A stretch of 64,000 bases of DNA from Chloroflexota bacterium. Lineage in GTDB: Bacteria; Chloroflexota; Limnocylindria; Limnocylindrales; CSP1-4. The position numbers and the translations under genes were made by a program. The DNA is taken from positions 55,873 through 119,872 of the forward strand of contig JAXLXC010000003.1 of assembly GCA_046328155.1 (NCBI GenBank), written 5' to 3'. Below, one piece after another: positions 1,168-24,258 of the stretch (positions are counted from its first letter, which is position 1; every line of letters begins with the position of its first letter). The notes under the pieces were generated by a model. That model saw only the letters and a list, made by a program, of their open reading frames with translations, was not told where the DNA came from and searched no databases.

Positions 1168-1170
1168 CGG

Positions 1171-1554: not shown

Positions 1555-1564
1555 CCCGCGGCCC

Positions 1565-3292: not shown

Positions 3293-3294
3293 CG

Positions 3295-3984: not shown

Positions 3985-3988
3985 CCCG

Positions 3989-6255: not shown

Positions 6256-6261
6256 CGTGCG

Positions 6262-6848: not shown

Positions 6849-6857
6849 CGCGTCGCC

Positions 6858-7313: not shown

Positions 7314-7332
7314 GGGTCGTTGCCTCTCCTCA

Positions 7333-8856: not shown

Positions 8857-9069
8857 GAGTGCCTCCGGTGATCGGAACGGACGCGCCGGAGGCTCGCAGC
8901 GGCAGCCACGACCCGGAAGTGCCCGCCGGTCCGCGGTCGGGGCAGCCGAGGATGCCCCGAGGGGCGATCGCCCGGCTGTCGATGCCTCATCGGGCGATCG
9001 CGAGTGCCCGGTCGGCCGCACCCGGGCGGGGCCCGCCGCCGGTCCCGGGAGGCGATGCTCCCCCGCGCG
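8857..9069. promoter_or_regulatory. Divergent intergenic control region between the sheath operon (-) and the cap/ATPase genes (+). It contains two copies of GGGCGATCGC (8962-8971 and 8992-9001); the first is part of a perfect 12-bp palindrome GGGCGATCGCCC.
   Basis: The two genes are transcribed outward from this 213-bp gap. The repeats were read directly from the sequence. Confidence 0.4.
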
Positions 9070-9903
9070 ATGATCCATGACGTCGACGAGTCGCTGCGCA
9101 CCCTGGTCAAGCGGGACGCCCTTGAGGGTTCGCGCGTGGACCTCGCGTTCGATGCCCCCACCCGCGAGTGGGCGGCGCGCCAGAACAGCCCCATCGTCTC
9201 GCTCTACCTCTACGACATCCGCGAGGACGTGTCGCGCCGCGAGGTGGCCTGGGAGACCCAGCGCGGGCCGGACCGGATGCCCACCCAGCACGCCCAGCCG
9301 CCTCGCCGCTACCGCCTGAGTTACCTCATCACGGCGTGGACCCAGCGCCCGGAGGACGAGCATCGGCTGCTGTCGTCGATGCTCGCCTGCTTCCTGCGCC
9401 ATCCCGTCCTGCCCACCGACGTGCTGGTGGGCGACCTGACCGGGACCTCGCTGCCGGTGCTCACCACCATCGCGCTGCCGCCGCCCCAGGACCGCTCCAT
9501 CGCGGACGTGTGGTCGGCGCTCGGCGGCGAGCTCAAGCCCTCGCTCGACCTGGTGGTGACGGCACCCCTGGATGCGTCCGTGCGCATCCCCGCTGCCGCC
9601 CCGGTGCTCGAGTCGCCACGGATCCGGGTGGTCCGGCCCGATGGCACGGGCGACGAGGTGGCGGTCGCAGGTCCGGGTGGTGGCGGGGCCGCACGCCGGC
9701 CCCTCGCACCCGACGACGAGGCCGACCAGGAGGAGACGGTGGAGCCGGGTGCCGTGGGCGTCGCGCGGCTGGGCCAGCCCGGGCCCCAACCGGCGCCTAC
9801 GGGTGGTCGCAAGCGCGCGGCGGCGGGCGCCCCGCAGGAGCCGCCGTCCACGGCCAGGCTCCCGGGCCGTCGGCTGATCATCCGGGGCGTGCGTCGCCCG
9901 TGA
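9070..9903 (+). CDS. DUF4255 (Pvc16_N) protein; eCIS tail terminator/cap, Afp16-like
   Basis: Starts MIHDVDESLRTLVKRDALEGSRVDLAFDAPTREWAARQNSPIVSLYLYDIRED, the hallmark DUF4255 N-terminus. Its stop overlaps the ATPase GTG start (GTGA). Confidence 0.8.
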   Translation: MIHDVDESLRTLVKRDALEGSRVDLAFDAPTREWAARQNSPIVSLYLYDIREDVSRREVAWETQRGPDRMPTQHAQPPRRYRLSYLITAWTQRPEDEHRLLSSMLACFLRHPVLPTDVLVGDLTGTSLPVLTTIALPPPQDRSIADVWSALGGELKPSLDLVVTAPLDASVRIPAAAPVLESPRIRVVRPDGTGDEVAVAGPGGGGAARRPLAPDDEADQEETVEPGAVGVARLGQPGPQPAPTGGRKRAAAGAPQEPPSTARLPGRRLIIRGVRRP

Positions 9904-12004
9904 CCGTCGCCGCCGGTCGCCCGGCCGACGAGGCGGCCGAGGTCGCGGGGCACGCCGACGCCTCGCTGGCCTACCTCGGGGCGCGTCTGGCCCTCCTCGA
10001 GGCGCGCGTGCGGTCGGCCGTCGAGCGGCGCCGCGCCACCGACCCCGACCCCGACGACCGGTTCCGGGGCCTCTACATCCCCGAGACCATGGTCGACCAG
10101 CTGCTGGCGGGCGCCCGCCCGCTCCTGCCCGACGGGCCGGACCACGCGTCGCTCGAGGCGCTCGACGGGTCCGCCGAGGTCGCGGAGGCCCAGGGCGCGA
10201 CCATCGGGCTGCGGCGGCTGGCCCGCGGCTTCGACCTCGCGCCACTGGACCTGGAACTCCTGCTGGTGGCGCTCGCGCCGGACCTCGAGCCGCGGTTCGA
10301 GCGGCTGTACGCGTATCTCCAGGACGACGTGTCGCGGCGGCGGGCGGGCATCGGCCTCGCGCTCGAGCTGGCGACCGGGATTCCGGGCCTCAGCCCGGCC
10401 CGGGCACGGCTGGGCCCGTCGTCGCCCCTGGTCGCGAGCGGCCTGCTGCTGGCGGACGAGCCCGAGCGCCCGTTCCTCACCCGGTCGCTGCGGGTGCCCG
10501 ATCGCGTCACGGCGCACCTCCTGGGCGACGACACGCCCGACCCACGCGTGGCGCTGCTGGCGATGGAGCCTGTGCCCCTGGCCCAGCCCGAGGGGGCGCT
10601 CGTGGCCCGTGCGATCGCCGCGGGCGTCCCGCTGGTGCATGTCCGGGAGCGACCGGGGACCGCCGGGGTCGCGATGGTGGCGGCAGCCCTGGGTGCCGTC
10701 CACCGAGGCGTGCTGACCCTCGACCTCGCCCGGCTGGGGCCGCTCGACGACGCGGGCGAGGTCGCGGCCGCCGCCGCCCGCGAGTGCCGGCTGCTGGGCG
10801 CCACGCTCATGGCCGGCCCGGTCGATGCGCTCGCCGAGCGCGGCGCAGCCGCCGTCCGCGCGTTCGCCGAGGCGCCCTGCCAGGTCGTGCTGGTGGGCGC
10901 CCGCACCTGGGATCCCGCATGGTCGCGACATGTGCCGGTGCTGGTGGACGCGCCGGCCCCTCGATCGAGGACCGCGCCGCGGCGTGGCAGGGGGCGCTGG
11001 ACGGGTGTGACGGGTCCGCCGACCCGGGCACGGTCACCGTCCAGTTCCTGTTGGGACCCGAGCAGATCGCGCGCGCCGCTCGCTCGGCGCGCCAGCAGGC
11101 GGACGCCGAGGACCGCCCGCTGCTGCCCGAGGACCTGCGCGCGGGTGCCCGCGCCCAGAACGCCGCGGGGCTCGAGCGTCTGGCCCGACGGGTGCGCCCG
11201 GCCGTGGGCTGGGACGACCTCGTGCTGCCCTCCGAGGTCGTGACGCAGCTCCAGGAGCTTGCGTCCCGCGCCCGGTACCGGGACGTCGTGCTCGACCGGT
11301 GGGGCATGGGTCGCGGATCATCCACCAAGGGACGTGGCATGACTGCCCTGTTCGCGGGGGACTCGGGCACCGGCAAGACCATGTCCGCCGAGGTGATGGC
11401 CGGGGACCTCGGGCTCGACCTCTACGTCATCGACCTCTCGACGGTCATCGACAAGTACGTGGGCGAGACCGAGAAGCACCTCGACCGGATCTTCACCGAG
11501 GCCGACCGGGTCAACGGGGTGCTCCTGTTCGACGAGGCGGACGCCGTGTTCGGCAAGCGCTCCGATGTCAAGGACTCCCACGATCGCTATGCGAACGTCG
11601 AGGTCGCGTACCTGCTCCAGCGCATGGAGCTGTTCGACGGCGTGGCCATCCTGACCACGAACCTGCGCGCCAACCTCGACGAGGCGTTCACCCGACGTCT
11701 CGACGGGGTGGTGGACTTCCCGGTCCCAGACGAGGACGACCGACTGCGTCTCTGGGAGCGCCACCTGCCGGTGGGCGTGCCGCGGGCCGACGACGTGGAC
11801 CTGGGGTTCCTCGCGCGCAGCTTCCGGCTCTCCGGGGGCAACGTTCGCAACGTCTGCCTCGCCGCCGCGTTCCTGGCCGCCGCGGACGGTCGGCCGATGC
11901 GCATGGCGGACCTCATCCACGGCACCGCCCGCGAGTATCAGAAGCTGGGCCGCCTGTTCGTGGAGGCCGAGTTCGGGCCTTGGCATCACCTCGTGCGGGG
12001 CTGA
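9900..12004 (+). CDS. eCIS AAA+ ATPase (Afp15-like), interrupted by a -1 frameshift at the C4 run 10957-10960 as sequenced
   Basis: The N-terminal 350 aa are in frame 0 (VTVAAGRPADEAAEV...VLVDAPAP). The Walker-A/AAA module is in the +2 frame (...PSIEDRAAAWQGAL...LFAGDSGTGKTMSAEVMAGDLGLDLYVIDLS...LLFDEADAVFGKR...). One extra C would join them into ...APAPSIEDRAAAW... Confidence 0.75.
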
Positions 12005-12185
12005 CGCGACATCCGTCGCATGGCGGATGCGCCGGGCGACCGATGGATCGGAGCGACGCCGACGGTCAACATGACGCGGACGGGTCCCCGGCGGCGCGAC
12101 ATCCACGAGCGTGGACAGCAGGAGCCCCCGGGGATCCGATGCCTTCCGGCGCCAGCCCGGCATCCATGGCCGGTTCGGCCCGTGC

Positions 12186-13745
12186 ATGGCATGCTCCGGA
12201 CCGGTGCCACCGACCACCGCCTCCCTGCCGCTCCGGGTCGCGACCCTGCTCGTCCTGGCCGCGCTGCTCGTGCCCGCGTCGCTGGCGCCTGCGCTGCTCG
12301 CGCCATCTCCCGTGCATGGCCAGGACCCCGCGACGCCGCCGACCATCGAGGTCTCCGGGTCGCCCCTGCTGCGCGACGAACCCGGCCGAGGGGTCCTGAT
12401 TCGCGTGACGCTCCGCGAGCCGGCCCACCTCCGACTGCTGGTCACCGACTTCGACGGCCAGGTGGTGCGCGAGCTGTACGACGGCGACCGAGGCGTCGGC
12501 GACCTGGGGCGTCGCTGGCGGGGTCGGGACGCGGACGGCCGTCTGGTCGCGGTGGGGGCCTATCGGGTGAGGGCCATCGCGTCCACCGCGGCCGTCCCGA
12601 CGGGCGTCGCGTCGGACGCGTGGGTCACGGTCGCCGACCACGCCGCGTACCCGGCGGACCCGGGCGCCATCACGGGGGTCGTCGACCCGGGTCACGGCGG
12701 CCCGTTCGATGGCGCGGTCGCACGCGATGGCACGCGCGAGGCCGACCTCAACCTGGACATCGGGCTGCGGCTCGCGCGGATGCTCGAGGGCGCCGGCGTG
12801 CACGTCGTGCTCACGCGGGATTCCGACCGACAGGTCGACCAGCCACCGATCGACCGGATCCCCGATGGCATCCTGGATGTGACCGACGACCTGGCCGCGC
12901 GCGCGGACCTCGCCAACGCCGTCCGGGCCGACCTGTTCATCGCCATCCACAACAACACCGCGGTCGACCGCACCACGGGCGGGCCATCCACCTACTACTC
13001 CGACGAGCGCACCTTCAGCGCCCGGTCGCGACATCTGGCGCGGATCATCCAGGCTCACATGGTGGCTGCCCTCGACGCGGTCGGGAGCGGCGCGTGGGCG
13101 CCCTACGACCACGGCGTCCTGGCGTATCCCTACTACGTCCTGCGCGACTACGACCCGCCCCGTCTGCTCCGTCCCAGCCAGATGCCCGCGGTCCTCTCGG
13201 AGGGGCTGTTCCTGTCCAACCCCCGCGAGCTGCGGATGCTCCAGCGCCCCCGCGTGCGGCAGGCCATGGCCGTCGCGTACTACGAGTCCGTGGTGGAGTA
13301 CCTCGCCACGCGCGGCAGCCACGTGGGATACGCGCTCCTGCGTGCCCCCACGACGGTCGAGGCGGGGTCGCCCGTCGAGCTGGAGCTGGAGGTCCGCGAC
13401 CAGGGCACCACCACGCTGCGGGGCTGGCACCTGGCCGTGGGCGCCCAGGTGGACGGGTCGACCGCGCTGGGACGCGCCCGTCCGGGTGGCACGCTGGGAG
13501 AGCGCCGCATCCCGACGCGCCGGCCGGGCCAGCGACGCACCCTCCGGGTCACCGCGACGGCGCCGGTGGAGCCGGGCCGCTGGGTGCTCCTGGTCGACGC
13601 GCGTGGCCCCACGGGTGGCCGCGCCTCGGAGGCCGGCAGCCCCATGCTCCAGGTGCCCATCGAGGTCACCGCGCCGGCGTCCGCGGATTCGTCCGTGGTC
13701 CCAGCTTCGCCCACCCCCGGGTCATCGGTGGCGCCAACGCCATAG
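12186..13745 (+). CDS. Secreted N-acetylmuramoyl-L-alanine amidase (Amidase_3) with an N-terminal Ig-like domain
   Basis: Signal-peptide-like N-terminus (MACSG...RVATLLVLAALLVPASLAPALLAPSPVHG). Amidase_3 motifs DPGHGGPFDGAV, DLNLDIGLRLARMLEGAGVHVVLTRDSD and ADLFIAIHNNT. An alternative start at 12111 is possible. Confidence 0.8.
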   Translation: MACSGPVPPTTASLPLRVATLLVLAALLVPASLAPALLAPSPVHGQDPATPPTIEVSGSPLLRDEPGRGVLIRVTLREPAHLRLLVTDFDGQVVRELYDGDRGVGDLGRRWRGRDADGRLVAVGAYRVRAIASTAAVPTGVASDAWVTVADHAAYPADPGAITGVVDPGHGGPFDGAVARDGTREADLNLDIGLRLARMLEGAGVHVVLTRDSDRQVDQPPIDRIPDGILDVTDDLAARADLANAVRADLFIAIHNNTAVDRTTGGPSTYYSDERTFSARSRHLARIIQAHMVAALDAVGSGAWAPYDHGVLAYPYYVLRDYDPPRLLRPSQMPAVLSEGLFLSNPRELRMLQRPRVRQAMAVAYYESVVEYLATRGSHVGYALLRAPTTVEAGSPVELELEVRDQGTTTLRGWHLAVGAQVDGSTALGRARPGGTLGERRIPTRRPGQRRTLRVTATAPVEPGRWVLLVDARGPTGGRASEAGSPMLQVPIEVTAPASADSSVVPASPTPGSSVAPTP

Positions 13746-13757
13746 CTCGGCCGGCGG

Positions 13758-14516
13758 TCAGCGGTTCGTGGCGTCGCGCCACGCCTCCTGTGCGGCCGGC
13801 CACCACCGGGCGATGACCACGTCGTCGCCATACCACGGGCTCCCGACCACGCCGTGGAGCGCGTCGTGGAGCGTGAGGTGCCGGGCGCCGGGCAGGTGGG
13901 CGAGCGAGAGCGAGACGATGCCATCGCCACCCGACGCGAGCGTGGGACCCGTGATGCGTCGGAAGAACGCGTGCTGCGCCCGGGCGATCGGGCCTCGGCG
14001 ACGCGAGGGCGGCCCGGTCGCCGGTCGGACCGCCTCGGACCCGACCGTGAGATAGGCGGTCCCGGGCGCGTCGTGGGCACCTGGCGCGTGACGTGCGAGG
14101 TGGGCGGCCAGCCGCACCCCCTCGTGGGTGCCCCGCAGCGGGGCGAGGTGGAGGTCGTGCGGCGACCCAAGCGTCACGAGACAGCCGACCCGGTCGGCCA
14201 TGCCGCCCACATGGCCCCGATACGGCGCCTCGGACATGGCGAGTCGGGCCAGCAGCCCACCACCCGAGTGGCCCACGACCATGATCGGACGGCCCGCGGC
14301 CCGCCGATGCGTCCCCTCGATGGCCAGGGCGACCTTCCGCTGGAGCGCCCCGAAGCCGCGGACCCCGGCGAGACCCCAATCGAGGGCATGGACCGGCGCG
14401 ATGTCCACGCCCGCCGCCCCGCGATGGAGCAGCCGCCGGCGCATCCGTCGATAGGCCACCGGGGGCGCCAGCAGGCCACCCACGATGAGCACCCACGGTC
14501 GGTCGCGGTCGGTCGC
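13758..14516 (-). CDS. Alpha/beta-fold hydrolase (lipase/esterase-like, GHSGG nucleophile elbow)
   Basis: ...PWVLIVGGLLAPPVAYRRM...RPIMVVGHSGGGLLARLAM... The start could also be at 14546. Confidence 0.65.
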   Translation of the reverse strand, partial: ATDRDRPWVLIVGGLLAPPVAYRRMRRRLLHRGAAGVDIAPVHALDWGLAGVRGFGALQRKVALAIEGTHRRAAGRPIMVVGHSGGGLLARLAMSEAPYRGHVGGMADRVGCLVTLGSPHDLHLAPLRGTHEGVRLAAHLARHAPGAHDAPGTAYLTVGSEAVRPATGPPSRRRGPIARAQHAFFRRITGPTLASGGDGIVSLSLAHLPGARHLTLHDALHGVVGSPWYGDDVVIARWWPAAQEAWRDATNR

Positions 14517-14588
14517 CATCTGGTCCACGGACGCAGGATGCCCCAACCAGCCGGAGGGGCCCTCGCCGGGCGCGTGCGCCCGGCGACG

Positions 14589-15512
14589 TCAGTCGGCGGA
14601 GTCGTCCCCCACCACGGGCACGGCTCCCTCGCGGCGTGGGGTCTGCTCCTCGGCCGCGCGGCGCTTGCGCTCCTCCTCGTCGATCTCGCGCTGCTCGATG
14701 GCCACGTCCATGACGGTGCCCTGCCTGATGCCGTGGCCGGTCCGCGCGTCATACGCCCTGCTCTTGGTGGCCAGGGACGCCTTGGCGCCCGCGAACAGCC
14801 GCTGCCCGGTGGCCACGGGCTTGCCCAGCATCCTGGCCGCCTGACCATCGAACAGCTGATGGACCAGGTCGATGTGGCCCTGCTCGTGCGCCCGCAGCGC
14901 CGCGTACCAGCGGGACCACTCCGCGCGGGCCTTGGGGAGCATCGTGCTGGGTGGCGCCCAGGACGGCATCTGCAGCTCGATGGCGACGCTGATGGTGACC
15001 GAGTCGATGATGCCGTCCGTCTGATGGAAGTCGAGGCTTGGCGCCCAGCTCACCTGGCCGGCCTCGGGCCGGCCGCCGATGGCAGCCGCGACGTCCGCGA
15101 GGGTGGATGCCACCACCTCGTAGCCCGATTCCGCGACAGGGCCCACGCTCTCGGTCGCGGCAGCCGCGTCGCCGCCCGAGAGCTGCGGGACCTCGTCGGT
15201 GGGCGTCCCCAGGTCGATGTCCTCGATGTCACGGCTGACGGTGACGTCGGTGATGCCCGTGGACGCGGCTCCCCGGCCGACACCCAGCCCTGTCGCGTGG
15301 CCGCGGCCGCCCAGCAGGCTCCCGAGCGCGGCGTTGCCAGCGTCCGCCTGGAGGCCTCCGATGGCACGCACGCGGCTGGCGGCGTCCGCCGCGTCGAGGT
15401 CGCGTGCCAGGTCGGCCGGCGGGAGCCCGAGGCGGCCCGTGGCCCCCTCGATGCGCTCGGCATCGACCGCCTGCCGCTGGGCGCCGCGTCGATGCGCTCG
15501 CTGTCGGGTCAT
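14589..15512 (-). CDS. DUF922-like putative Zn-metallopeptidase (HEQGH motif)
   Basis: The C-terminal ...LPKARAEWSRWYAALRAHEQGHIDLVHQ... matches the DUF922 / predicted secreted Zn-protease HExxH pattern. ATG at 15512; the ORF-track extension to 15902 overlaps the divergent DUF4157 gene and reads as garbage. Confidence 0.55.
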   Translation of the reverse strand: MTRQRAHRRGAQRQAVDAERIEGATGRLGLPPADLARDLDAADAASRVRAIGGLQADAGNAALGSLLGGRGHATGLGVGRGAASTGITDVTVSRDIEDIDLGTPTDEVPQLSGGDAAAATESVGPVAESGYEVVASTLADVAAAIGGRPEAGQVSWAPSLDFHQTDGIIDSVTISVAIELQMPSWAPPSTMLPKARAEWSRWYAALRAHEQGHIDLVHQLFDGQAARMLGKPVATGQRLFAGAKASLATKSRAYDARTGHGIRQGTVMDVAIEQREIDEEERKRRAAEEQTPRREGAVPVVGDDSAD

Positions 15513-15734
15513 GCTCGCCCGATGGTCGCCCCAGCCCCACGCCGGAGGCACGTCCGGCTGGTCGCACGAACGGGCGCCCTGGACCGCCCGAAGGGTCGTC
15601 CCGGTCGGCCCGGACGGGCACCCGTCGCTTCCCGTGCCGACGCGCCGCCGGGCCTTGGTGCCAGTCGCGACCGGGCGCAGGCTCCAGGCCAGCGGGTGGC
15701 AGCGGCCTGGCCAGGCGACCCGTCCACTTCGGGA

Positions 15735-16535
15735 GTGACGAGCGTGGGCAACGAACTGGACCTCGAGCTCGCCGGTGGCGTGCGGACGGCGCTGCCGGGA
15801 CATGCCACCGAGGCGTCCACGGCGGGTCATGGCCCGATGCTCGCCGCGCGCGCAGTCGCCGAGGGCCGCCCGTCCGCCCTGGACGCCGCCTCCATCGCCC
15901 ACCTCCAGGCCGTGGCTGGGAATGGCGGTGTCGCGCGGCTACTCGAGGACGATGCGCCCGACCAGGTGCGCTCGGCGCTCTCGCGCTCCGGCGAGACGCT
16001 CGACCCAGCGGTCGCCGCCGACATGTCGGCGCGGCTGGGCGCGGACCTCTCGGACGTGCGGATCCACCGAGACGCCACGGCGTCCGAATCGGCACGGGCG
16101 GTCAACGCCAACGCCTACACGGTCGGCTCCGACATCGTGTTCCAGTCCGGCCAGTACGACCCGGCGAGCCCGGCCGGCCAGCGGACCCTCGCCCACGAGC
16201 TGACCCACGTGGTCCAGCAGCGCGCCGGTGCCGTCGACGGCACCGAGGTCGGCGACGGGCTGGCGCTCAGCCATCCGTCCGACCGCTTCGAGCGCGAGGC
16301 CTCGAGCACGGCCGACCGGCTGATGGCGGGAGCCAGCCCAGCGGCGACGCCCGCGCCCGTGACCGCGGCCCGCCACGCCGATGCCCACGAGGACGGCACG
16401 GCGCAGCGGGGCATCGCCATCGAGAACGTCGCCGACGACGAGGAACAGCCCGAGGAGGAGGAGCAGACGGGCGCCGGGCTCATCGGCCAGCGCGACACCG
16501 ACGAGCCCGAGGAGGAGGAGCAGACCGCCGGGTGA
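15735..16535 (+). CDS. DUF4157-domain protein (HExxH; eCIS-associated toxin N-terminal-domain family) with a poly-acidic C-terminal tail
   Basis: Starts at a GTG (15735) preceded by GGGAG. Canonical DUF4157 core: DLSDVRIHRDATASESARAVNANAYTVGSDIVFQSGQYDPASPAGQRTLAHELTHVVQQ. The C-terminus carries ...EEQPEEEEQT...DEPEEEEQTAG. The 5' part of the 893-aa track ORF is antisense to the neighbouring genes and spurious. Confidence 0.75.
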   Translation: MTSVGNELDLELAGGVRTALPGHATEASTAGHGPMLAARAVAEGRPSALDAASIAHLQAVAGNGGVARLLEDDAPDQVRSALSRSGETLDPAVAADMSARLGADLSDVRIHRDATASESARAVNANAYTVGSDIVFQSGQYDPASPAGQRTLAHELTHVVQQRAGAVDGTEVGDGLALSHPSDRFEREASSTADRLMAGASPAATPAPVTAARHADAHEDGTAQRGIAIENVADDEEQPEEEEQTGAGLIGQRDTDEPEEEEQTAG

Positions 16536-16575: not shown

Positions 16576-17238
16576 CTAGATCAGCCCCTGCTTGATGGCG
16601 TACGCGACGGCGTGGGTCCGGTTGCGCAGCTCCAGACGGCTCGTGATGTCGTGGACGATGTTCTTGACCGTCCGCTCGGAGTAGAACAGCTCCCGACCCA
16701 CCTCGGCCGTGTCCATGCCGTCGGCGAGCAGTCGCAGCACCCGGACCTCGCGCTCCGACAGACCCCGGAACGTCAGCCCGCGGGGCGCCAGCACCTGTCG
16801 CTGGAGGCGACCGACCTGGTCGAGCAGCCGACCCAGCAGGTCCGGGGGCAGCGTCCCCTCGCCGGCCGCCACGGAGCGGATCATCGAGCGCAGGTTGCCG
16901 GACGTGGCATCGCCACGCCGCAGCACGCCGCTCACCCCGGCCTCGACCGCGGCCAGCAGCCCTTGGTCGTCGAGACGCGCCACGAGCAGCCCGACGCGCT
17001 CCACCCCCTGGCGCCGCAGGGCGCGGATGCGTCGCGTGGCCTCCTCGTCGACCTCGTCGGCGACCACGAGCGCGACCGCGGCCCCACCCGGCTGCGCCTC
17101 CTCGACGACGCGGACGCCGGGCGCGGCGCGCAGCTGCGTCACCGTGCCCGCCCGGGATACCGGGTCGGCGGCCGAGACCGCGACCTCGATGGTGTCCAGA
17201 TGGCGTGCCTCGGCTGGATGATCCTGCACCAGGTACAT
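16576..17238 (-). CDS. LuxR/NarL-family response regulator (C-terminal HTH)
   Basis: C-terminal LuxR HTH (...LSEREVRVLRLLADGMDTAEVGRELFYSERTVKNIVHDITSRLELRNRTHAVAYAI). ATG at 17238 with GGAGG upstream. No adjacent kinase. Confidence 0.75.
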   Translation of the reverse strand: MYLVQDHPAEARHLDTIEVAVSAADPVSRAGTVTQLRAAPGVRVVEEAQPGGAAVALVVADEVDEEATRRIRALRRQGVERVGLLVARLDDQGLLAAVEAGVSGVLRRGDATSGNLRSMIRSVAAGEGTLPPDLLGRLLDQVGRLQRQVLAPRGLTFRGLSEREVRVLRLLADGMDTAEVGRELFYSERTVKNIVHDITSRLELRNRTHAVAYAIKQGLI

Positions 17239-17359
17239 GACACCTCCTCGTCCTGTGGCGTCAGCGGGTCGCTGCCCGTTCGGGTCGACCTGCGACCTGC
17301 CGGGCCTCCCGGGGATGCTGGCCCCGGGGTGCCCCGAAGGCTGCCCCCGCGGACTTGCC

Positions 17360-17381
17360 GCCGACTGAACGCCGACTGAAC
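17360..17381. repeat. Perfect tandem direct repeat, 2 x GCCGACTGAAC (11-mer), in the divergent promoter region between the LuxR regulator and the membrane-protein operon
   Basis: Read directly: ...cttgcc GCCGACTGAAC GCCGACTGAAC gg... Confidence 0.5.
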
Positions 17382-17493
17382 GGACCACCGCCCCCACGGG
17401 TGCGCACGACCTGGGGCGACGAGCTGCCGATCGCCCGCCCGATCGCCCCGATGGGTAGTCGGCGCGCGACGGCTGCGCCTAGACTCCCGGGCC

Positions 17494-18705
17494 ATGGGAG
17501 CGATCGCCGTCCTGGGTACCCGATCGATCGCCGTGGCGCCGGGCGCGCAGGCGAGCGTCGAGATCAAGGTCCGCAACAACGGCACCGTCGTGGACCAGTT
17601 CTCGATCCAGGTGCTGGGCGATGCCGCGCCGTGGTCCGCGTCCGAGCCGCCGGTCGTCTCGCTGTTCCCGGGAGCCGAGCAGACCGCGCGGGTCACCTTC
17701 AAGCCGCCACGCTCGCCCAGCGTCCCCGCGGGCCCAATGCCCTTCGGGGTGCGCGTCGCCTCCCAGGAGGATCCGGCGGGGTCGGTGGTCGAGGAGGGCC
17801 AGCTCCAGGTCGGTGCCTACAGCGAGACGAGCGCGGAGCTGGCACCCCGGACCTCTCGGGGCCGGACGAGCGCGACCCACGACCTTGCCATCGACAACCG
17901 TGGCAACACCATCCTCAACGCATCGGTCACGGGTCTCGACCCGGACCGGACGCTGGCGTATGACATCAAGCCGCCGGCGCTCGTCATCGACCCGGGAGCC
18001 GCCGCGTTCACCAAGGTCGCGGTCAGGCCTCGCCGTCGGTTCTGGCGTGGGCAGCCCAAGACCCACGCCTTCCAGGTCCAGCTGGACGGCGGTCCGGCAC
18101 CCGTGCTGGTGGGCGGGTCGATGCTCCAGGAGCCGCTGCTGCCGCCCTGGCTGCTGAAGGCCCTGGCGCTGCTGCTCGCCGCGCTCGTGGCGCTCGCGCT
18201 CATCTGGGTCCTGTTCCTCCAGCCCGCCATCCGGTCCACCGCCCAGGAGAGCGCCGAGGAGGTCCTGGCCGGCGTGGGCATCACCCCCAACCCCAACCCC
18301 AACGGCAACGGGGATGGCAACGGGGACGGCCAACCCTCGCCCACGCCCACCACCCCCGGCCAGAGCACCTCGCCCACCACGCCCACGCCCACGCCGGGAC
18401 CCGCGGGCGTCCAGACGCCGACGGATGGCCGCCTCGTGGCCGGCGGGACCCCCGCGGCGCCGAGCGACGACCGGACGCTATACGTGACGGACCTGGTGTT
18501 CTCGAACCCGAACGGGACCAGTGGCACCGTGCGGCTGCGCCGGTCGGGCGATGACCTGTTCGTGCTCAACCTGGACAACTTCCGGGACCTGGACTTCCAC
18601 TTCGTGACGCCCATCGCCGTGGGGTCCGACCAGAGCCTGCGACTGGTCTGCGAGGGCGTGTGCGACGGCCCGCCCGCGGTGTACTTCTCGGGGTACCAGC
18701 GCTAG
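17494..18705 (+). CDS. Bitopic membrane protein: N-terminal cytoplasmic beta-rich domains, one TM helix, Pro/Thr/Gly linker, about 100-aa C-terminal extracytoplasmic domain
   Basis: No signal peptide (MGAIAVLGTRSIAVAPGAQASVEIKVRNNGTVVDQFSIQVLG...). Single hydrophobic helix WLLKALALLLAALVALALIWVLFL. Linker NPNPNGNGDGNGDGQPSPTPTTPGQSTSPTTPTPTP. C-terminal domain with two Cys (LRLVCEGVCDG). Confidence 0.6.
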   Translation: MGAIAVLGTRSIAVAPGAQASVEIKVRNNGTVVDQFSIQVLGDAAPWSASEPPVVSLFPGAEQTARVTFKPPRSPSVPAGPMPFGVRVASQEDPAGSVVEEGQLQVGAYSETSAELAPRTSRGRTSATHDLAIDNRGNTILNASVTGLDPDRTLAYDIKPPALVIDPGAAAFTKVAVRPRRRFWRGQPKTHAFQVQLDGGPAPVLVGGSMLQEPLLPPWLLKALALLLAALVALALIWVLFLQPAIRSTAQESAEEVLAGVGITPNPNPNGNGDGNGDGQPSPTPTTPGQSTSPTTPTPTPGPAGVQTPTDGRLVAGGTPAAPSDDRTLYVTDLVFSNPNGTSGTVRLRRSGDDLFVLNLDNFRDLDFHFVTPIAVGSDQSLRLVCEGVCDGPPAVYFSGYQR

Positions 18706-18707
18706 CC

Positions 18708-20708
18708 ATGGCCAGGCGGCTGGTCGCCGCCGCCCTCGGCGCCCTGCTGCTGCTGTCGGGCGTGCTGCCGACCCCGGACCCGCTGCCGCCCGCCTCCGCC
18801 CCCGTGGCGGCCGCCAGCTCCGGGATGCCCATCGTGTCGGTCGACCCGTCGTGCCTGCCGGCGAGCAGCGACCCGGCCGTCCCCGAGACGAGGGACGTCG
18901 AGGTGGAGGGGCACGGGTTCGAGCCCGGCAGCCAGGTGCCGATCAGGCTGTACGCATCGGAGGGTCAGCCGGTCGCGTTCGCCGACGCGGACGCGCTGGG
19001 CACGTTCCGCGCCACGATCCCGGTGCCGCTGCCCGCCGAGGCCGCCGGGGTCGTGGTCCTGGCCGGCGACGTCGGGGGCACCGCTGCCCAGGCGTACCTG
19101 CAGGTGCCGTGCCTGCCCACGCTCCAGGTCGACCCCACCTGCGCGGACCCCGGCCAGACGTTCGATGTGACGTTCACCGCGACCAACTTCCAGCCCGACA
19201 CCCAGATCCGGGTGGGTCTGGTCGGGCCGCCCGATGGCGACATCATCTCGGACCCGCTGACCACCGACGGCGACGGTCGGCTGGAGTACGCATTTCGAGG
19301 CATGGGACCGCTGCCCGAGGGGACCTACTACGCTGCCGCGGTCCAGGGGGTCGGCGGGGGCCAGACCATGCCGCGTGCGGCCGTCCGCAACCCGTGGGTC
19401 GCGGCGGCACCGTTCGAGGCCCCCTGCCCGGCGCGCCCGACCCTGACGCTCGACCCTGACTGCGGTCGTACCGGGTCACCCCAGGACCGGTATGCCGTGA
19501 CGGTCCGTGGCACGGGCTTCGAGCCGGGCGAGGCCACCATCACCTGGGACACCGGTGGCTCGCAGGAGACGTTCCTGGCCCAGGTGGGCACGGACGGCAC
19601 GTTCGAGGCGCCCATCGACCCGTGGCGGCGAGGTCGGATGCGGATCCGGGTGCGCGCGGCGCAGCGCTTCCTCCAGCTGTCCGAGGTGTCCGGCGTCGCC
19701 GCCTACTCGCCCGATTGGCGACCCAGACGCGCCGTGGCGACCTCGTTCACGGTCCCCTGCGCGCCGACCGTCCTCACCCTGGACCCCGACTGCGACCGCC
19801 CGGCCCTGCGCGGCGAGGCCGAGCGTCGGATGACCCTGGCGGTGCGTGGATCGGGCATCCGGATGTCGTCCGTCGCGAGCAGGGCGCCCACCACGGAGCT
19901 GGTGTTCGACGCCGATGGCGCAGCCGCGGACGTGCTGGAGCCAGAGCGGTTCCCTGTCGAGGTGGGCGCGGACGGGACCCTGTCGGCGACCATCACGCCG
20001 CTCGCGCGGCCCATGGGCGAGTACCGCGTCGCCCTGGTCGTCGATGGCCAGCCGCTCGCGCAGGCGACGTTCCGGGTGCCCTGCGAGCAGGCGCAGCCGA
20101 ACCTGCGCCCGCTGCTGCCCGACTGCCTGCCGCTCGCACCTGGCCAACCGGCCGTCGCGGAGCTCCGCGTGCGAGGCCGACGCTTCTACCCTGGGCCTGT
20201 GGAGGTGCTGTTCGGCGAGCAGGGCGCGCGGGACGCCACGACGGGGACCGTGGCGGACGACGGCACCTTCGACGTGACGCTGCCGGTGACGGGCCGCGAG
20301 CCTGGCACCTACCAGGCACAGGGTCGTCAGCGCGACACGCGCGGCACGGTGGTGGCGCGCGCGTTCCGCGACCTCGAGGTGCCCTGCGTGGACCCGGTCA
20401 TCGCGGTCAGCCCGGCGAGTGGGCCGACGGGGTACGCGACCATGGTCAGCGGCACCGGGTTCCCGCTGGACACGGTCATCACCCTCACGTGGGACCGAGG
20501 CCTCACCGCCGCTCGCCCGATCGTGGTCACCACGGATGCCACGGGGGCCTTCCGGGTGGGGGCCTACATCCTGCCCAACGACATCGAAGGGTCGCGCACG
20601 CTCACCGCCGGCACGCCCCAGGACGCCCAGGCCTTCCCGGGCGTGAGCGCCCGCTATCTGGTGGTGCCGGGGTCCGGCCAGCCGCCGGGGAGCGTCGACC
20701 GTCGCTGA
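18708..20708 (+). CDS. Secreted protein with six tandem Ig-like (IPT/TIG-like) repeats delimited by conserved Cys pairs
   Basis: Signal peptide MARRLVAAALGALLLLSGVLPTPDPLPPASA. Repeats are each headed by ...VPC...(L/V)DP.C... (VDPSCLP / VDPTCADPG / LDPDCGRTG / LDPDCDRPA / LLPDCLPLA / VPCVDPVIAV) followed by ...GTGFEPG-like strands. Its start is 3 nt after the upstream stop. Confidence 0.6.
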   Translation: MARRLVAAALGALLLLSGVLPTPDPLPPASAPVAAASSGMPIVSVDPSCLPASSDPAVPETRDVEVEGHGFEPGSQVPIRLYASEGQPVAFADADALGTFRATIPVPLPAEAAGVVVLAGDVGGTAAQAYLQVPCLPTLQVDPTCADPGQTFDVTFTATNFQPDTQIRVGLVGPPDGDIISDPLTTDGDGRLEYAFRGMGPLPEGTYYAAAVQGVGGGQTMPRAAVRNPWVAAAPFEAPCPARPTLTLDPDCGRTGSPQDRYAVTVRGTGFEPGEATITWDTGGSQETFLAQVGTDGTFEAPIDPWRRGRMRIRVRAAQRFLQLSEVSGVAAYSPDWRPRRAVATSFTVPCAPTVLTLDPDCDRPALRGEAERRMTLAVRGSGIRMSSVASRAPTTELVFDADGAAADVLEPERFPVEVGADGTLSATITPLARPMGEYRVALVVDGQPLAQATFRVPCEQAQPNLRPLLPDCLPLAPGQPAVAELRVRGRRFYPGPVEVLFGEQGARDATTGTVADDGTFDVTLPVTGREPGTYQAQGRQRDTRGTVVARAFRDLEVPCVDPVIAVSPASGPTGYATMVSGTGFPLDTVITLTWDRGLTAARPIVVTTDATGAFRVGAYILPNDIEGSRTLTAGTPQDAQAFPGVSARYLVVPGSGQPPGSVDRR

Positions 20709-20735
20709 CCCGTGCGCCGCACCCGGGCGGGCGCC

Positions 20736-21986
20736 TCACTGCTGGATGTCGATGACCAGCTCCACGACGCTCCCGTCGTCGGGGTCGTCGGTGACCCAGG
20801 CGGGTGCCTGGAGCGAGTAGCAGGTGTCGCCCCGGACGCCCAGCGCGAGCCATTGGCGACCCTCGTCGTCCGTGCCCGCGGTCACGGCCCGGACCTTCGG
20901 CAGGGCGACCTCCTGGTCCACCGCCAGGGTGGCGCGGATCCCATCCGACAGGGTCAGCACGACCGCGGTCCGGCCGACCGACGGTGCCCTGAACCCGAGC
21001 TGCTCCTCGACCTCCGAGACCGGGAGCACCTGGACCACGGCGCGGGTGCCCTTCCCATCCAGCCCCCTGCGACGGCTCAGTTCGAGATACACGTGATCGA
21101 AGCCCGGTCGGGTGCCCCACCTGACCCGGTCGATGTTCCAACCCCGCCCCAGCGGGTCCTCGAGCGCGACCGCCTCCCCGTCGCACAGGTACGTGCCGGC
21201 GGGCGGGGGCGTGGGAAGGTCGCCGGCAAGGCCGGTGGCGATCGGGGTCGCCGTCACGGTGGGGGTCCGCGTCGGTCGCGGGGTGACCCTGGGCGTCGGT
21301 CCCGCGGTGGCCTCGGCCGTGGGCGTGTCGGCCCCCCTCGGCGTGGCGGTGGGTCGCGCGGTGGGCTCCCCCGTGCGCCGCCCCGTGGGCGCGGACGTCG
21401 CGGCGGGCGTCCCCGACGCACGGGCGGTCCGAGGCGTGCTGGTGGGCGACGGTCCGCCCAGCGCACCGCCGAACACGATGGCGGCACCCACCACCGCGGC
21501 GATGGCGATGAGCCCGATGCCCGCGACCACGAACCGCCGCCCGCCACGGCCCGAGGCGGCCGTGGCCACGGGGCGCGGCGTGCCGGCGACGGTCCCGACC
21601 GCGGGGTCCAGCTCGTTGCCGCAGCGCTGGCAGAAGGTGCGCCCCGATGGGTTGGCCAACCCGCAGAAGCGGCATGTGACGCCACCCATCACGGGTGGCG
21701 CGATCATCTGGGGCGGACCCTGCGGCTCGGGTGGCGGGGCAGGGGCGAGGTAGGAGCCGCTCCATCCGCTCGTGACGGGTGGGCTGGCCGGCGTCGCCCC
21801 GGTCCCGGCCGCTCGCGCGTCCCGGGCCGGGACGGGCGCGGCGGGGGTGTCGCCGGATGCCGGCCCGACGGGCGCAGCGGCGTCGCCGGAAGCGGACCAG
21901 CCGAGATAGCGCCCGCACTGGCCGCAGAACTCATCCCCGGCCTCGTTCTGGAAGCCGCATGCCGGACACGCGATTCGATCGCCCAC
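20736..21986 (-). CDS. Membrane protein: N-terminal double zinc ribbon (2 x CxxC..CxxC), one TM, Pro/Thr-rich linker, conserved C-terminal domain
   Basis: MGDRIACPACGFQNEAGDEFCGQCGRYLGW...TCRFCGLANPSGRTFCQRCGNEL. TM segment FVVAGIGLIAIAAVVGAAIVF. C-terminal ...YLCDGEAVALEDPLGRGWNIDRVRWGTRPGFDHVYLEL...VVELVIDIQQ. Confidence 0.6.
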   Translation of the reverse strand: MGDRIACPACGFQNEAGDEFCGQCGRYLGWSASGDAAAPVGPASGDTPAAPVPARDARAAGTGATPASPPVTSGWSGSYLAPAPPPEPQGPPQMIAPPVMGGVTCRFCGLANPSGRTFCQRCGNELDPAVGTVAGTPRPVATAASGRGGRRFVVAGIGLIAIAAVVGAAIVFGGALGGPSPTSTPRTARASGTPAATSAPTGRRTGEPTARPTATPRGADTPTAEATAGPTPRVTPRPTRTPTVTATPIATGLAGDLPTPPPAGTYLCDGEAVALEDPLGRGWNIDRVRWGTRPGFDHVYLELSRRRGLDGKGTRAVVQVLPVSEVEEQLGFRAPSVGRTAVVLTLSDGIRATLAVDQEVALPKVRAVTAGTDDEGRQWLALGVRGDTCYSLQAPAWVTDDPDDGSVVELVIDIQQ

Positions 21987-22052
21987 GACGTGCTGCTCCC
22001 GTGCGACGTGACCCTTCGCAGTCTAGCCCGCCGCACCGCGAGGGCCGGGCCC

Positions 22053-23048
22053 TCAGCGCTGGATGTCGACGACGAGCTTGGCCGTGGTGGTGTCGTCGCC
22101 GCCGTTGCGCCAGTCGTTCGCGACGAGCCGGGCGCATCCGTCACCCGCGATGCCCAGGACCGCATGGACCACGCCGTCGTCGTCGGTGCGTGCGGCGACG
22201 CTGGCGAGCGCCGTGAGGCCTGGCCGTTCGGCGATGTCGGTGCGCAGCGCGATGGGGCCGTCGAACGTGATGACCAAGGCGCGGTCCCCAGCCGGCATGG
22301 TCACGTCGTATCGCGAGGCGGCGCGAGCCGGACGCAGGAACTCCATGCCCACGATCGTGCCCGTGCGCGTCGACCCTTGGAGGCGGGCGAGGTCGAAGGT
22401 CAGGCGGTCATAGCCGTCCCGCTGGCCCCAGCGGGCTCCCGTCACGCGCCAGCGGCCGCCCAGGGGATCCTGGATGGCGTCGTCGTCGCAGGTCCATGAG
22501 GTCCGGGTCGACAGGGGCGTGGTGGTCGGCTCGTCCGATGGCTCGTCGGGGCCGGGCGTCGCCTCGGCGCCTGGATCCTCGGTCGCGCCGGCTGGGTCCT
22601 GGGTCGGCTCCGCGACCGGGTCGTCCGTGGCGACCGGATCGGGGGCCCGGCTGGGTGCCCCGGTCGGCTCGGCGGTCGCCGCCGGTTCGCCGCTCGCCGC
22701 GATGCCCCCGGACGCGGGCGACGTGGCGCCCTGCCCGGCGGTCGTGGGCGCGGATTCGAAGCCCCGGAACACGAGGAACCCCGCGATGCCCGCGATGACC
22801 ACGATCGCCACGAGGCTGATGACCGCGGCGATCCCGGCGCCGCGCTCGGAGGGCAGGTCCGCGCGCCGCGTGGTGGTGCCCCGGACCGGGTCGCGGGGCG
22901 CGCCGAGCGGCAGGCCACAGCTCCGGCAGAAGCGTGCGGTGACCTCGTTGCGCAGGTGGCACACGGGACAGACGACGAACGGGGGCACCTGGGTGGCGGC
23001 ACCAGCCGCCGCCGTCCCCTTCCGACCGGGAACCCTCATCGAGGGCAT
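22053..23048 (-). CDS. Paralogous zinc-ribbon/TM protein with the same C-terminal domain
   Basis: ...VCPVCHLRNEVTARFCRSCGLPLG...; TM IAAVISLVAIVVIAGIAGFLVF; C-terminal ...WTCDDDAIQDPLGGRWRVTGARWGQRDGYDRLTFDLARL...AKLVVDIQR, which aligns with the C-terminus of the 20736-21986 protein. Confidence 0.6.
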   Translation of the reverse strand: MPSMRVPGRKGTAAAGAATQVPPFVVCPVCHLRNEVTARFCRSCGLPLGAPRDPVRGTTTRRADLPSERGAGIAAVISLVAIVVIAGIAGFLVFRGFESAPTTAGQGATSPASGGIAASGEPAATAEPTGAPSRAPDPVATDDPVAEPTQDPAGATEDPGAEATPGPDEPSDEPTTTPLSTRTSWTCDDDAIQDPLGGRWRVTGARWGQRDGYDRLTFDLARLQGSTRTGTIVGMEFLRPARAASRYDVTMPAGDRALVITFDGPIALRTDIAERPGLTALASVAARTDDDGVVHAVLGIAGDGCARLVANDWRNGGDDTTTAKLVVDIQR

Positions 23049-23127
23049 GGTGCCACAGGCACGCGCCGGGGCCCGATGAAGAAGAGGTTGGTTCCCGTTG
23101 ACGGAGCCATGCGCGTGGCGTCGACGC

Positions 23128-24123
23128 TCAGGCCTCCGCCAGCGCCGGGATGACGTCCCGGCCGTATGCCTCCAGCTGGGCCTCCTCGTCCCCGTTCATG
23201 AGGTAGATGTTGAACTGGTCCACGCCCGCGTCGCGGAGCTCGCGGAGCTTGGCGACGTGCTCGGCCGGCTCGCCCAGGACACAGAAGCGATCGACCACCT
23301 CGTCCGTCACGAAGCCGGCGTTGTCGGAGCCCACCTCGGCATGGTGCAGGTAGTCGTAGCCCTGGCGGTCGCGGATGTAGCCCGTGAGCGAGTCGGGGAG
23401 CTCCTCCCGCGGGTACTTGTTGACCAGGTCGACCACGTGGTTGCCCACGAGTGCGGGGAACCAGCGCACGCGCTCCCGGCCCACCTCGCGGGGTGCCACA
23501 TGCGCCGGTGCGGCGGCCTGGATCCGGATGCTCGCGGGGTCCCGTCCCGCCGCCGCCGCGGCCTCCCGCATCATGCCCGCCATCCAGCGGATGAGGTCAG
23601 GGTCGGCGAGCTGCAGGATCAGACCGTCAGCGATCCGACCCGTCATCGAGAGGGCCATCGGCCCATAGCCCGCGACCCACACGGGCAGCCGCCAGGCTCC
23701 GGTCCACGGCAGGCTGACCTCGGTGCCCTCCCACACCCGCGCGCGACCCTCCACGAGGTCACGGATGAGCTCGATGGCCTCCTCCAGGGTGCGCATGGTG
23801 GTGGGTGGCTTGCCGAGCACCCGCCGCGCGCTGTCGCCGCGACCGATGCCTAGGTCCATGCGCCCGTCCGAGATCTCGTCGAGCGTGGCGAGGACGCTCG
23901 CGGTGACCGTCGGCTCGCGCGTGGCCGGGTTCGTGACGCAGGTCCCCAGCCGCATCCGCGTGGTCGCGAGGGCCATCATCGTGAGGAGGGGGTAGACCTC
24001 CTTCCACAGCACGTGGGAGTCGAACAGCCAGCCATAGCCGAACCCGGCCTCCTCCGCCTGACGTGCGAGGGCGACGGTGCGCGTGACGGTGTGGTCGGGC
24101 TTGAGGGTGAAGCCGAAGTCCAT
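23128..24123 (-). CDS. LLM-class (luciferase-like) F420-dependent oxidoreductase
   Basis: 331 aa from the ATG at 24123: MDFGFTLKPDHTVTRTVALARQAEEAGFGYGWLFDSHVLWKEVYPLL...; the 5' extension in the track is spurious. Confidence 0.8.
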   Translation of the reverse strand: MDFGFTLKPDHTVTRTVALARQAEEAGFGYGWLFDSHVLWKEVYPLLTMMALATTRMRLGTCVTNPATREPTVTASVLATLDEISDGRMDLGIGRGDSARRVLGKPPTTMRTLEEAIELIRDLVEGRARVWEGTEVSLPWTGAWRLPVWVAGYGPMALSMTGRIADGLILQLADPDLIRWMAGMMREAAAAAGRDPASIRIQAAAPAHVAPREVGRERVRWFPALVGNHVVDLVNKYPREELPDSLTGYIRDRQGYDYLHHAEVGSDNAGFVTDEVVDRFCVLGEPAEHVAKLRELRDAGVDQFNIYLMNGDEEAQLEAYGRDVIPALAEA

Positions 24124-24258
24124 GGCCGCGCAGGGTACACCGTGCGACGGGCCGACCTCGCCCAGGGATGCCCGCGCGGCGACCGCGCGCGCCGTTGACC
24201 CGAGCCACGACAATGCACACGAGGACCGGCCTGCCATGGCCGGGTCGGGAGAGGGAGG

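Follow-up and report, generated by a model that had tools for sequence, protein, structure and literature searches.

A 64-kb stretch of genomic DNA from a member of the Chloroflexota (contig JAXLXC010000003.1; the whole stretch is referred to here as the window) encodes, beside an extracellular contractile injection system (eCIS), two divergently transcribed genes whose products carry HExxH motifs. One encodes a protein of 307 aa with a DUF922 domain (14589-15512, minus strand), the other a stand-alone protein of 263 aa with a DUF4157 domain (15744-16535, plus strand), and the two are separated by an intergenic region of 231 bp (15513-15743). The question raised by this locus is whether the two proteins serve the neighboring injection system and, if they do, in which role. 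A preliminary description of the window, made from the sequence alone, had reported a divergent DUF922-like (HEQGH) and DUF4157 (HELTH) pair next to an injection system, and had proposed the pair as a candidate module for eCIS cargo, processing or packaging. Open reading frame (ORF) analysis and Pfam matches bear out both the gene pair and the adjacent eCIS, and the proposed module survives the Pfam and co-occurrence checks. The reading that we favor, and consider fairly probable, is that the pair serves a Chloroflexota eCIS of Limnocylindrales type as an accessory module, either as cargo or in cargo handling. It is directly supported by the identity of the domains, the conservation of catalytic residues, synteny with the eCIS, an N-terminal tag common to both proteins, which the preliminary description had not seen, and the existence of fusions.

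The two proteins share an N-terminal tag

Residues 49-70 of both proteins hold a common motif of the form LQxxAGNxxhxxLL, which reads RAIGGLQADAGNAALGSLLGGR in the DUF922 protein (15303-15368, minus strand) and ASIAHLQAVAGNGGVARLLEDD in the DUF4157 protein (15888-15953, plus strand). AlphaFold2 (AF2) models the tag as a helix in both proteins, with lower confidence in the DUF922 protein, where a disordered linker of 45 residues follows. A search for the pattern LQ..[AVIS]GN in all six frames of the window returned just two matches, located at residue 54 of the DUF922 protein and residue 54 of the DUF4157 protein, against about 0.2 matches expected by chance according to a rough estimate based on residue frequencies. 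Profile-profile comparison of the two N-termini with hhalign aligned the same residues, 49-70, with P=3.9e-5, versus P=0.4 for a control comparison against the DUF4157 core. The motif is also preserved within each family: L54, G59 and N60 are invariant in 19 homologs of the DUF922 protein, Q55, G59 and N60 are invariant in 73 homologs of the DUF4157 protein, and LQxxxGN is found upstream of the core in 115/120 members of the small DUF4157 family. A conserved LQxxxGN helix is not described in the literature on contractile injection systems (CIS) that was searched.

The tag is common to the cargo-type genes of one system, both in 11 related Chloroflexota loci (L001-L011) and in loci L020 and L021-L025. 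In the related loci, matches to a relaxed tag pattern are almost confined to three N-termini, those of the DUF4157 and DUF922 proteins and that of a tape-measure-like ORF of 1110 aa in L011, while in L021, L023 and L025, which are unrelated loci of ~50% GC, the sequence LQQT[HY]GNRYVQRV is common to every accessory cargo gene. As a separate observation, a coiled-coil, tape-measure-like protein of ~1100 aa with an LQR..GN N-terminal tag adjoins the small DUF4157 gene in L011 (6063-9395, plus strand) and L020 (10801-14075, plus strand), and resembles the Sle1/Tme class of Streptomyces CIS effectors. In L020 the large tape-measure-like family again stands behind an LQRRAGN N-terminus, after the small DUF4157 gene, in an assembly that is frameshifted; with tag ORF and large cargo ORF in different frames of this frameshift-prone assembly, L020 was dropped as a clean example of the tag and L011 was used.

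The gene pair is a fixed part of an eCIS lineage

Locus context was recovered for the 11 related loci, which are mostly labeled Limnocylindrales, and some of the metagenome assemblies providing this context carry frameshifts. The arrangement [GerE][DUF4157]<>[DUF922]...[AAA][WHD][Pvc16]<>[sheath][tube], in which AAA and WHD designate an Afp15-like ATPase gene, is kept in 11/11 loci at DUF922 identities down to 42%, and among the sampled loci the pair never occurs away from an eCIS. The gene of a PGAP1-like hydrolase follows the DUF922 gene in 10/11 related loci; in L011, which has no PGAP1 gene, the DUF4157 and DUF922 genes are separated by a 4-kb cargo gene. DUF922 is also found in seven more remote relatives, which belong to Actinobacteria, Acidobacteria and Saccharibacteria; these are domain-only proteins of ~155 aa or have unrelated N-termini, in either case without the tag, and no eCIS or DUF4157 genes were detected in their 0.5-10 kb of flank. 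Because synteny extends to all 11 related loci, and because the distant relatives without eCIS also lack the tag and a DUF4157 partner, the DUF4157/DUF922 pair is a fixed part of this eCIS lineage and not a chance neighbor.

Within the window, an eCIS of complete appearance is found 3-15 kb left of the pair, the end of the AAA gene being 3.7 kb and the sheath gene 6.9 kb from the DUF4157 gene. Adjacency to DUF4157 is a known feature of eCIS toxins (PMC11297309), and the locus shows the features given by Danov et al. 2024 for eCIS-associated toxins: the genes lie at most 10 genes from eCIS core genes and either bear DUF4157 or lie at most two genes from a DUF4157 gene, the DUF922 gene being one gene and the PGAP1 gene two genes away from it.

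DUF922 and DUF4157 form single polypeptides in other eCIS clusters

A profile search of 1.84 billion cluster representatives identified 2115 relatives of DUF922, and the best 150 of these 2115 were classified by architecture. Within the best 150, the tag precedes DUF922, as in the window, in 53 proteins, DUF4157 and DUF922 are joined in one polypeptide in 19, the DUF922 domain stands by itself in 45, and other N-termini are found in 33; a cargo-type N-terminal motif or a fused DUF4157 is therefore present in 72. All of the tag-bearing or fused DUF922 loci that were examined (14/14) lie in or beside eCIS clusters. Six fusions (P0205, P0257, P0300, P0209, P0191 and P0274) were confirmed by Pfam scan, and in every fusion the tag comes first, then DUF4157 and then DUF922, with a further 200-1000 residues in some. 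The eCIS accessory block harbors the fusion gene in L021/L022, L023/L024 and L025, where it stands between the WHD-AAA gene on one side and Pvc16/sheath on the other, immediately following the former in L021/L022 and L025; other cargo genes joining DUF4157 to another domain, such as DUF4157-lysozyme, adjoin it in L021-L025. DUF922 is the C-terminal, toxin-position domain in P0257 (365 aa), while P0205 combines tag, DUF4157, DUF922 and the start of the tape-measure-like family in one polypeptide. That all long fusion C-termini are tape-measure-like was considered and rejected, since P0205 alone fits, and P0226, an apparent DUF922-PGAP1 fusion that would have linked the hydrolase to the module, was rejected because its sequence is an out-of-frame, Arg/Pro-rich read-through, and hence an assembly or gene-call artefact. 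Since a single gene beside the eCIS ATPase gene elsewhere encodes tag, DUF4157 and DUF922 together, the arrangement in the window is the split form of a cargo architecture that recurs. No link between DUF922 and CIS was found in the literature searched; the examined parts of the supplements of Geller et al. contain neither DUF922 nor PF06037, which is not conclusive.

Both proteins carry conserved metal-site residues

The minus-strand ORF containing the DUF922 gene spans 14589-15902, and coding-type GC content at third codon positions (GC3) stops within it at about 15400-15550. The ATG at 15512 gives a 307-aa product that is identical to an NCBI-annotated protein ('MAG: DUF922 domain-containing protein [Chloroflexota bacterium]'; MAG, metagenome-assembled genome). 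This exact match assigns the DNA to the Chloroflexota, and an actinobacterial origin, which the GC content had suggested, was rejected on its account. The product matches the Pfam DUF922 profile (PF06037) with 64.3 bits (cutoff 27; E=1.7e-17) over profile positions 4-153 of 153, and comprises an N-terminal helical tag (~30-66), a disordered Gly-rich linker (68-114), a zincin-like core (118-290) and a charged C-terminal end, with predicted local distance difference test (pLDDT) values in the AF2 model above 90 for the core and below 50 for the linker. The metal-binding motif HEQGH occupies residues 209-213 (14874-14888, minus strand). Among the 150 cluster representatives, H209, E210, H213 and D255 are conserved at 99% and H260 at 91%; judging from this conservation, the third metal ligand is probably D255 (or H260), in a YDxxTGHG motif. 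No hydrophobic N-terminal stretch was apparent by inspection alone, residues 1-66 consisting of charged helices, and several homologs carry the Joint Genome Institute (JGI) name 'predicted secreted Zn-dependent protease'. Close homologs of this protein number only 39, all of them matching PF06037.

For the DUF4157 gene, the likeliest start is the GTG at 15744, with GGGAG 8 nt upstream; an in-frame GTG at 15735 lies three codons earlier. The preliminary description was thus right in treating both genes as real, and the starts are to be moved, to 15512 on the minus strand and most likely to 15744, not 15735, on the plus strand. The match to Pfam PF13699 (DUF4157, renamed eCIS_core) reaches 110.2 bits (cutoff 22; E=5.6e-32) over profile positions 2-78 of 79, and both earlier domain assignments hold at these E-values. 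N-terminal helices with the tag motif are followed by a zincin core and a disordered acidic repeat tail, for which the AF2 model gives pLDDT values of 84-98 at residues 30-195 and of about 50 in the tail (200-263). The active-site helix HELTHVVQ is encoded at 16194-16217 (plus strand), HELTH being residues 151-155, and the residues of the HExxHxxQ-E signature (H151, E152, H155, Q158 and the distal E183) are invariant in 73 DUF4157 homologs. Comparison of the model with the PDB using Foldseek gave the M48 peptidase BepA as best match, which is not significant (E=1.5). The protein has 2868 homologs, including several from Actinobacteria (Saccharothrix, Nocardioidaceae, Propionibacterium), and among the best 120 listed, 119 are 182-337 aa long and contain PF13699 only. 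It therefore represents a stand-alone subtype of ~250 aa, in which no toxin domain follows the core, just a 60-residue disordered acidic tail.

This tail (16341-16535, plus strand, including the stop codon) holds a duplicated unit (AQR...DDEEQPEEEEQTG / GQRDTDEPEEEEQTAG), and the duplicated acidic tract reported previously is confirmed at the DNA level by a 38-nt direct repeat (16436-16473 / 16493-16530, 82% identical, 57 nt apart). The acidic tail is not a peculiarity of this protein. Tails in the ~250-aa DUF4157 family contain 2-6 tandem units VQGxFVQRxxxEEEEE, with 1.7 instances of [VILM]Q[RK] per tail in the small DUF4157 family vs 0.04 in shuffles, and the acidic hydrophobic-Gln-Arg repeat tail is a hallmark of the very large ~250-aa family. 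In L019 and L020 the small DUF4157 gene sits between the WHD-AAA and sheath genes. A second small eCIS_core type, of 214-226 aa and without the N-terminal tag, was observed in L021 (14647-15327), L023 (11730-12410) and L025 (13771-14415); in these ~50% GC clusters its genes lie inside the structural block, between tube genes. This location of the tagless proteins suggests that stand-alone DUF4157 proteins fall into two functional classes.

A related motif precedes the DUF922 core. A single hydrophobic-Gln-Arg motif, usually followed by acidic or basic residues, is found at most 35 residues upstream of the core in 56/93 representatives vs 5.2 expected, the maximum in 500 shuffles being 11 (of 93). 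Its counterpart in the DUF922 protein of the window is the invariant R94 (VTVSRD; residues 90-94, 15231-15245, minus strand). Considered by itself, the motif is a boundary mark of DUF922 and of DUF4157 modules in many lineages, and it occurs in tandem in small DUF4157 tails.

Because metal-site residues are conserved in both families, the DUF922 and DUF4157 proteins are probably enzymes, or at least metal-binding. A PDB sequence search with the two family profiles gave zero matches. Searches of NCBIfam, PHROGs and PADLOC also gave zero matches for the two proteins, and there is therefore no phage-family or defense-system reading of either of them.

Gene content of the locus

The gene map was built from GC3 frame analysis, the ORF map and a Pfam scan in DNA with a GC content of 68-78% (2-kb windows). 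The eCIS structural operon (2-8856, minus strand; Pfam and ORF map) continues past the left end of the window and encodes, in order, baseplate-J-like, gp25, PAAR, VgrG, CIS_tube/LysM, gp19 tube, probable tape measure, unknown, gp19 tube and sheath proteins. The sheath, the two gp19 tubes, CIS_tube/LysM, VgrG, PAAR and gp25 (763-8856, minus strand) have Pfam matches, while the leftmost ORF (2-766) has no Pfam match and is baseplate-J-like by sequence alone; the probable tape measure gene was assigned by its position. The accessory genes (9004-12004, plus strand; Pfam) encode Pvc16_N (9004-9903) and an Afp15-like ATPase with WHD and AAA domains (9900-12004), which is found here in two frames. 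These are followed by the gene of an Amidase_3 protein (12111-13745, plus strand; Pfam), the gene of the PGAP1-like alpha/beta hydrolase (13758-14546, minus strand; Pfam) and the gene pair.

The PGAP1-like hydrolase, whose Pfam match is marginal (27.4 bits vs a cutoff of 24.3), corresponds to the alpha/beta hydrolase that the preliminary description had placed in the same orientation as the DUF922 gene. Its gene is indeed on the DUF922 strand, 42 nt downstream of the DUF922 gene, and for this reason the two are probably co-transcribed. The motifs GHSGG (nucleophile elbow), GSDG and HGVVG are conserved in its orthologs, and the PGAP1 gene immediately adjoins that of the AAA ATPase in L005 and L008. 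By analogy with the validated toxin EAT17, the hydrolase is a candidate effector. As a further observation, the protein encoded between the ATPase and PGAP1 genes combines an Amidase_3 domain (N-acetylmuramoyl-L-alanine amidase) with a FlgD Ig-like domain and has a hydrophobic N-terminus. Its gene is present in the window, L004 and L010 only among the related loci, and it could be a lysis/release enzyme or a peptidoglycan-targeting effector.

A GerE/LuxR-type regulator gene (16576-17238, minus strand; Pfam GerE E=9e-14) adjoins the DUF4157 gene on its other side and is syntenic in all related loci (tblastn); GerE regulators are known neighbors of eCIS (PMC8213781). Alignment with L004 and L010 revealed a conserved block (GCCCrTyGGTGCGACCAsCCGrAC) in the divergent intergenic region, ~55-85 nt upstream of the DUF922 start, which could be a promoter or a site for a regulator such as GerE. 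A scan of 13.6-17.6 kb found no sigma-70 promoter or terminator consensus sites, an uninformative result in 75% GC DNA. Independently of the pair, a gene block at 16576-24237 was seen to keep its synteny with the eCIS in those related Chloroflexota loci whose flank is covered. It encodes the GerE regulator, a 403-aa Cep192_D3-like protein, a 682-aa Ig-repeat protein (Big_6/TIG), an AMIN-like protein, a 331-aa protein and an F420-dependent LLM oxidoreductase, and its Ig-repeat proteins might serve the eCIS as surface, targeting or anchoring components.

Discussion

If the pair is an accessory cargo or cargo-handling module, as we favor, the tag would bring the DUF4157 and DUF922 proteins to the particle during its assembly, by way of the Afp15-like AAA+ loader, of the DUF4157 domain together with the tube initiator, or of both. 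The DUF4157 protein would act as a core partner comparable to Sle2 of Streptomyces lividans, its acidic repeat tail replacing a toxin domain, and DUF922 would be a passenger zincin bearing the same tag. Both proteins would be packed in the tube lumen and expelled upon contraction, and the zincin domains might act either on the target or on other cargo loaded along with them, such as the PGAP1-like hydrolase. Of this scheme, we infer loading, injection and protease activity as well as the substrates or targets.

Several points weigh against this interpretation. All of its support is comparative. The ATPase gene is frameshifted in the window, where the WHD ORF (9900-11243) and the AAA ORF (10784/10919-12004) exchange frames near 10,930-10,960, while the WHD+AAA ATPase of L004, L005 and L010 is one uninterrupted ORF of 690-700 aa; the split reflects either an error in the assembly, which is a MAG, or a disabled cargo loader, in which case the eCIS could be defective here. 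Since no solved structure significantly resembles the AF2 model of the DUF922 or the DUF4157 protein in comparisons with the PDB, the zincin fold of DUF922 rests on motifs. The copies of the Gln-Arg motif in the linker and tail of the window are degenerate (SR, AQR, GQR), and the PGAP1-like hydrolase lacks the tag. In the AF2 model of the DUF4157 protein the tag helix lies packed against the protein's own domain (pLDDT 84-88), and it may therefore be a structural extension of the domain and not a free signal. In AlgoCIS, moreover, the DUF4157 domain is dispensable for loading, and the toxicity of Cgo1 is independent of HExxH (PMC8894135; 10.64898/2026.05.27.728243).

A first alternative, which we regard as rather unlikely, is that the zincins are maturation or assembly factors that stay in the producing cell and trim cargo or structural precursors, perhaps at the hydrophobic-Gln-Arg linkers, in the manner of a prohead or tail protease. 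The near invariance of catalytic residues in both families agrees with such a role, as do the prediction that DUF4157 is an autoproteolytic 'releasing peptidase' (PMC3482391) and the strong enrichment of the linker motif at domain boundaries (56/93 vs 5 expected). Long fusions that place DUF922 between DUF4157 and a long C-terminal region, and not in the toxin position, point the same way, and so does the small eCIS_core gene without the N-terminus that lies inside the structural block in L021/L023/L025. Yet both proteins of the window bear the tag that is common to all accessory cargo genes within a system, the DUF4157 proteins Cgo1 and Cgo2 are physically present in the tube lumen (PMC8894135), and several fusions, such as P0257, do have DUF922 at the C-terminal toxin position.

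More speculatively, the LQxxxGN helix and the hydrophobic-Gln-Arg(+acidic) repeats might form a recognition and cleavage code for eCIS cargo, with the zincins as cutters, a proposal that we consider doubtful. The helix would dock any cargo, whether DUF4157, DUF922 or tape-measure-like, onto the DUF4157 domain or the AAA+ loader, and DUF4157 and DUF922 would cut the Gln-Arg linkers flanking the modules, so that a tagged precursor would be loaded and free domains released after injection; the acidic repeat tail would then be a pseudosubstrate or a plug filling the lumen. Were this true, DUF922 would be a second, previously unrecognised 'pre-toxin' processing module used across several phyla.

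We hold it to be improbable that the toxin is DUF922, served in trans by the small DUF4157 protein as a dedicated chaperone, adaptor or inhibitor that would keep it inactive and bridge it to the spike or tube initiator without acting on the target. Precedent for this division of roles comes from Sle2, which binds the Sle1 N-terminus and the tube initiator and stabilises Sle1 (PMC13277306), from the proposal by Danov et al. that DUF4157 is a cis or trans chaperone (PMC11297309) and from the speculation of Geller et al. on an immunity-like role (PMC8213781), and the cis DUF4157-DUF922 fusions provide a Rosetta-stone link between the two domains. The invariant HExxHxxQ...E, however, favors catalysis or metal binding over mere binding, and the proposal overlaps largely with the cargo-module reading, from which it differs just in how the roles are divided. 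The maturation and chaperone alternatives are set apart chiefly by the site of zincin action. Finally, that the two genes have housekeeping roles, one coding for a secreted Zn protease and the other for an unrelated peptidase, and stand beside the eCIS by chance is very improbable and largely refuted by the synteny and fusion data, since against the JGI secreted-protease label and the many DUF922 relatives without eCIS genes nearby stand a 115-residue tag and linker in place of a hydrophobic signal sequence, 11/11 synteny down to 42% identity, fusions with an eCIS marker domain inside eCIS clusters, and a DUF4157 eCIS odds ratio of 2614 (PMC8213781).

Taken as an accessory cargo or cargo-handling module, the pair ties part of the uncharacterised Pfam family DUF922 to eCIS. 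It was known already that DUF4157 occurs beside eCIS, that small DUF4157 proteins can stand alone and that cargo may be encoded next to DUF4157 genes; what is new relative to the literature searched is the DUF922-eCIS link and the common tag, with the Gln-Arg linker motif as a further by-product. The statement in the preliminary description that none of this is characterised has been overtaken by work on Sle2 (PMC13277306), Cgo1/Cgo2 (PMC8894135) and EAT17 (PMC11297309); the DUF4157 half is of a known kind, and DUF922, treated there as secondary, is the less-known partner. DUF4157 function and eCIS cargo recognition are bottlenecks in engineering particles for protein delivery. The locus offers a minimal case, with two short proteins that have the same 22-residue tag, one zincin-like domain each and no large toxin domain, and it has a natural 'fused' counterpart in other lineages; the tag as loading determinant, binding between DUF4157 and the tag, and cutting of Gln-Arg linkers by the zincins are therefore testable.

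Comparison with known systems

The closest known parallel is Sle2 of the S. lividans SLP (Nagakubo et al. 2026), a small DUF4157 protein that binds the tube initiator as well as Sle1's N-terminal region (PMC13277306). As in that system, a small stand-alone DUF4157 protein is encoded in the window beside a Gram-positive-type CIS and next to a cargo gene without DUF4157. The DUF4157 protein of the window shows 46-50% identity with small actinobacterial DUF4157 proteins encoded in the AAA-sheath interval (L019, L020), and it is probably of the same kind as Sle2, as judged through these actinobacterial homologs. In L020 the likeness goes further, in that a large tape-measure-like cargo follows the small DUF4157 gene as Sle1 follows Sle2. 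In Streptomyces, small DUF4157 genes flank the sheath-adjacent cargo gene (PMC13277306). The window differs from this plan in its partner, a DUF922 zincin together with a PGAP1 hydrolase where Sle2 has a tape-measure-like one, and in the divergent orientation of its pair, about 7 kb from the sheath gene; the Sle2 arrangement of tape-measure-like effector and sheath flanks is absent in the window and seen in L020 (Actinobacteria-like) and partly in L011.

Other known proteins resemble parts of the module. The PVC-metallopeptidase is a pre-toxin domain with the signature HExxHxxQ-E, a marker of PVC/eCIS export and a predicted releasing peptidase (Zhang et al. 2012, PMC3482391). The DUF4157 protein of the window has the same signature but lacks a variable C-terminal toxin, and DUF922 is not mentioned in PMC3482391. 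EAT17 of Mycetohabitans rhizoxinica is a PGAP1-type hydrolase validated as an eCIS toxin (Danov et al. 2024, PMC11297309), and the PGAP1-family hydrolase of the window is likewise encoded beside eCIS Pvc16/DUF4255 and AAA genes, although the two are likened by family only and the Pfam match of the latter is marginal. In the CIS of Streptomyces coelicolor, the effectors Sco4256-4258 have an N-terminus in common and fill the lumen (Casu et al. 2023, PMC10066040); likened here by description, they contain a transmembrane segment and ricin-type domains, in contrast to the zincins of the window.

In AlgoCIS, the DUF4157 cargo proteins Cgo1 and Cgo2 lie in the tube lumen and have similar N-termini (PMC8894135); loading depends on their N-terminal domain and also requires the AAA+ protein Alg15 (bioRxiv 10.64898/2026.05.27.728243). 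The order of N-terminal domain, DUF4157 and variable C-terminus is comparable to that of the window, whose Afp15-like gene is the counterpart of Alg15. Unlike in AlgoCIS, the C-terminus of the DUF4157 protein of the window is just a 60-residue acidic tail, and the second cargo lacks DUF4157. The AlgoCIS N-terminal domains are also described as disordered and non-conserved across systems, and the PROCIS preprint describes loading sequences as 'not conserved' between systems (10.64898/2026.05.27.728243), whereas the 22-residue helix motif of the window is common across phyla. Since the cargo proteins of one CIS share N-termini, and since loading needs an N-terminal domain and an AAA+ protein, the tag common to the DUF922 and DUF4157 proteins fits these experiments.

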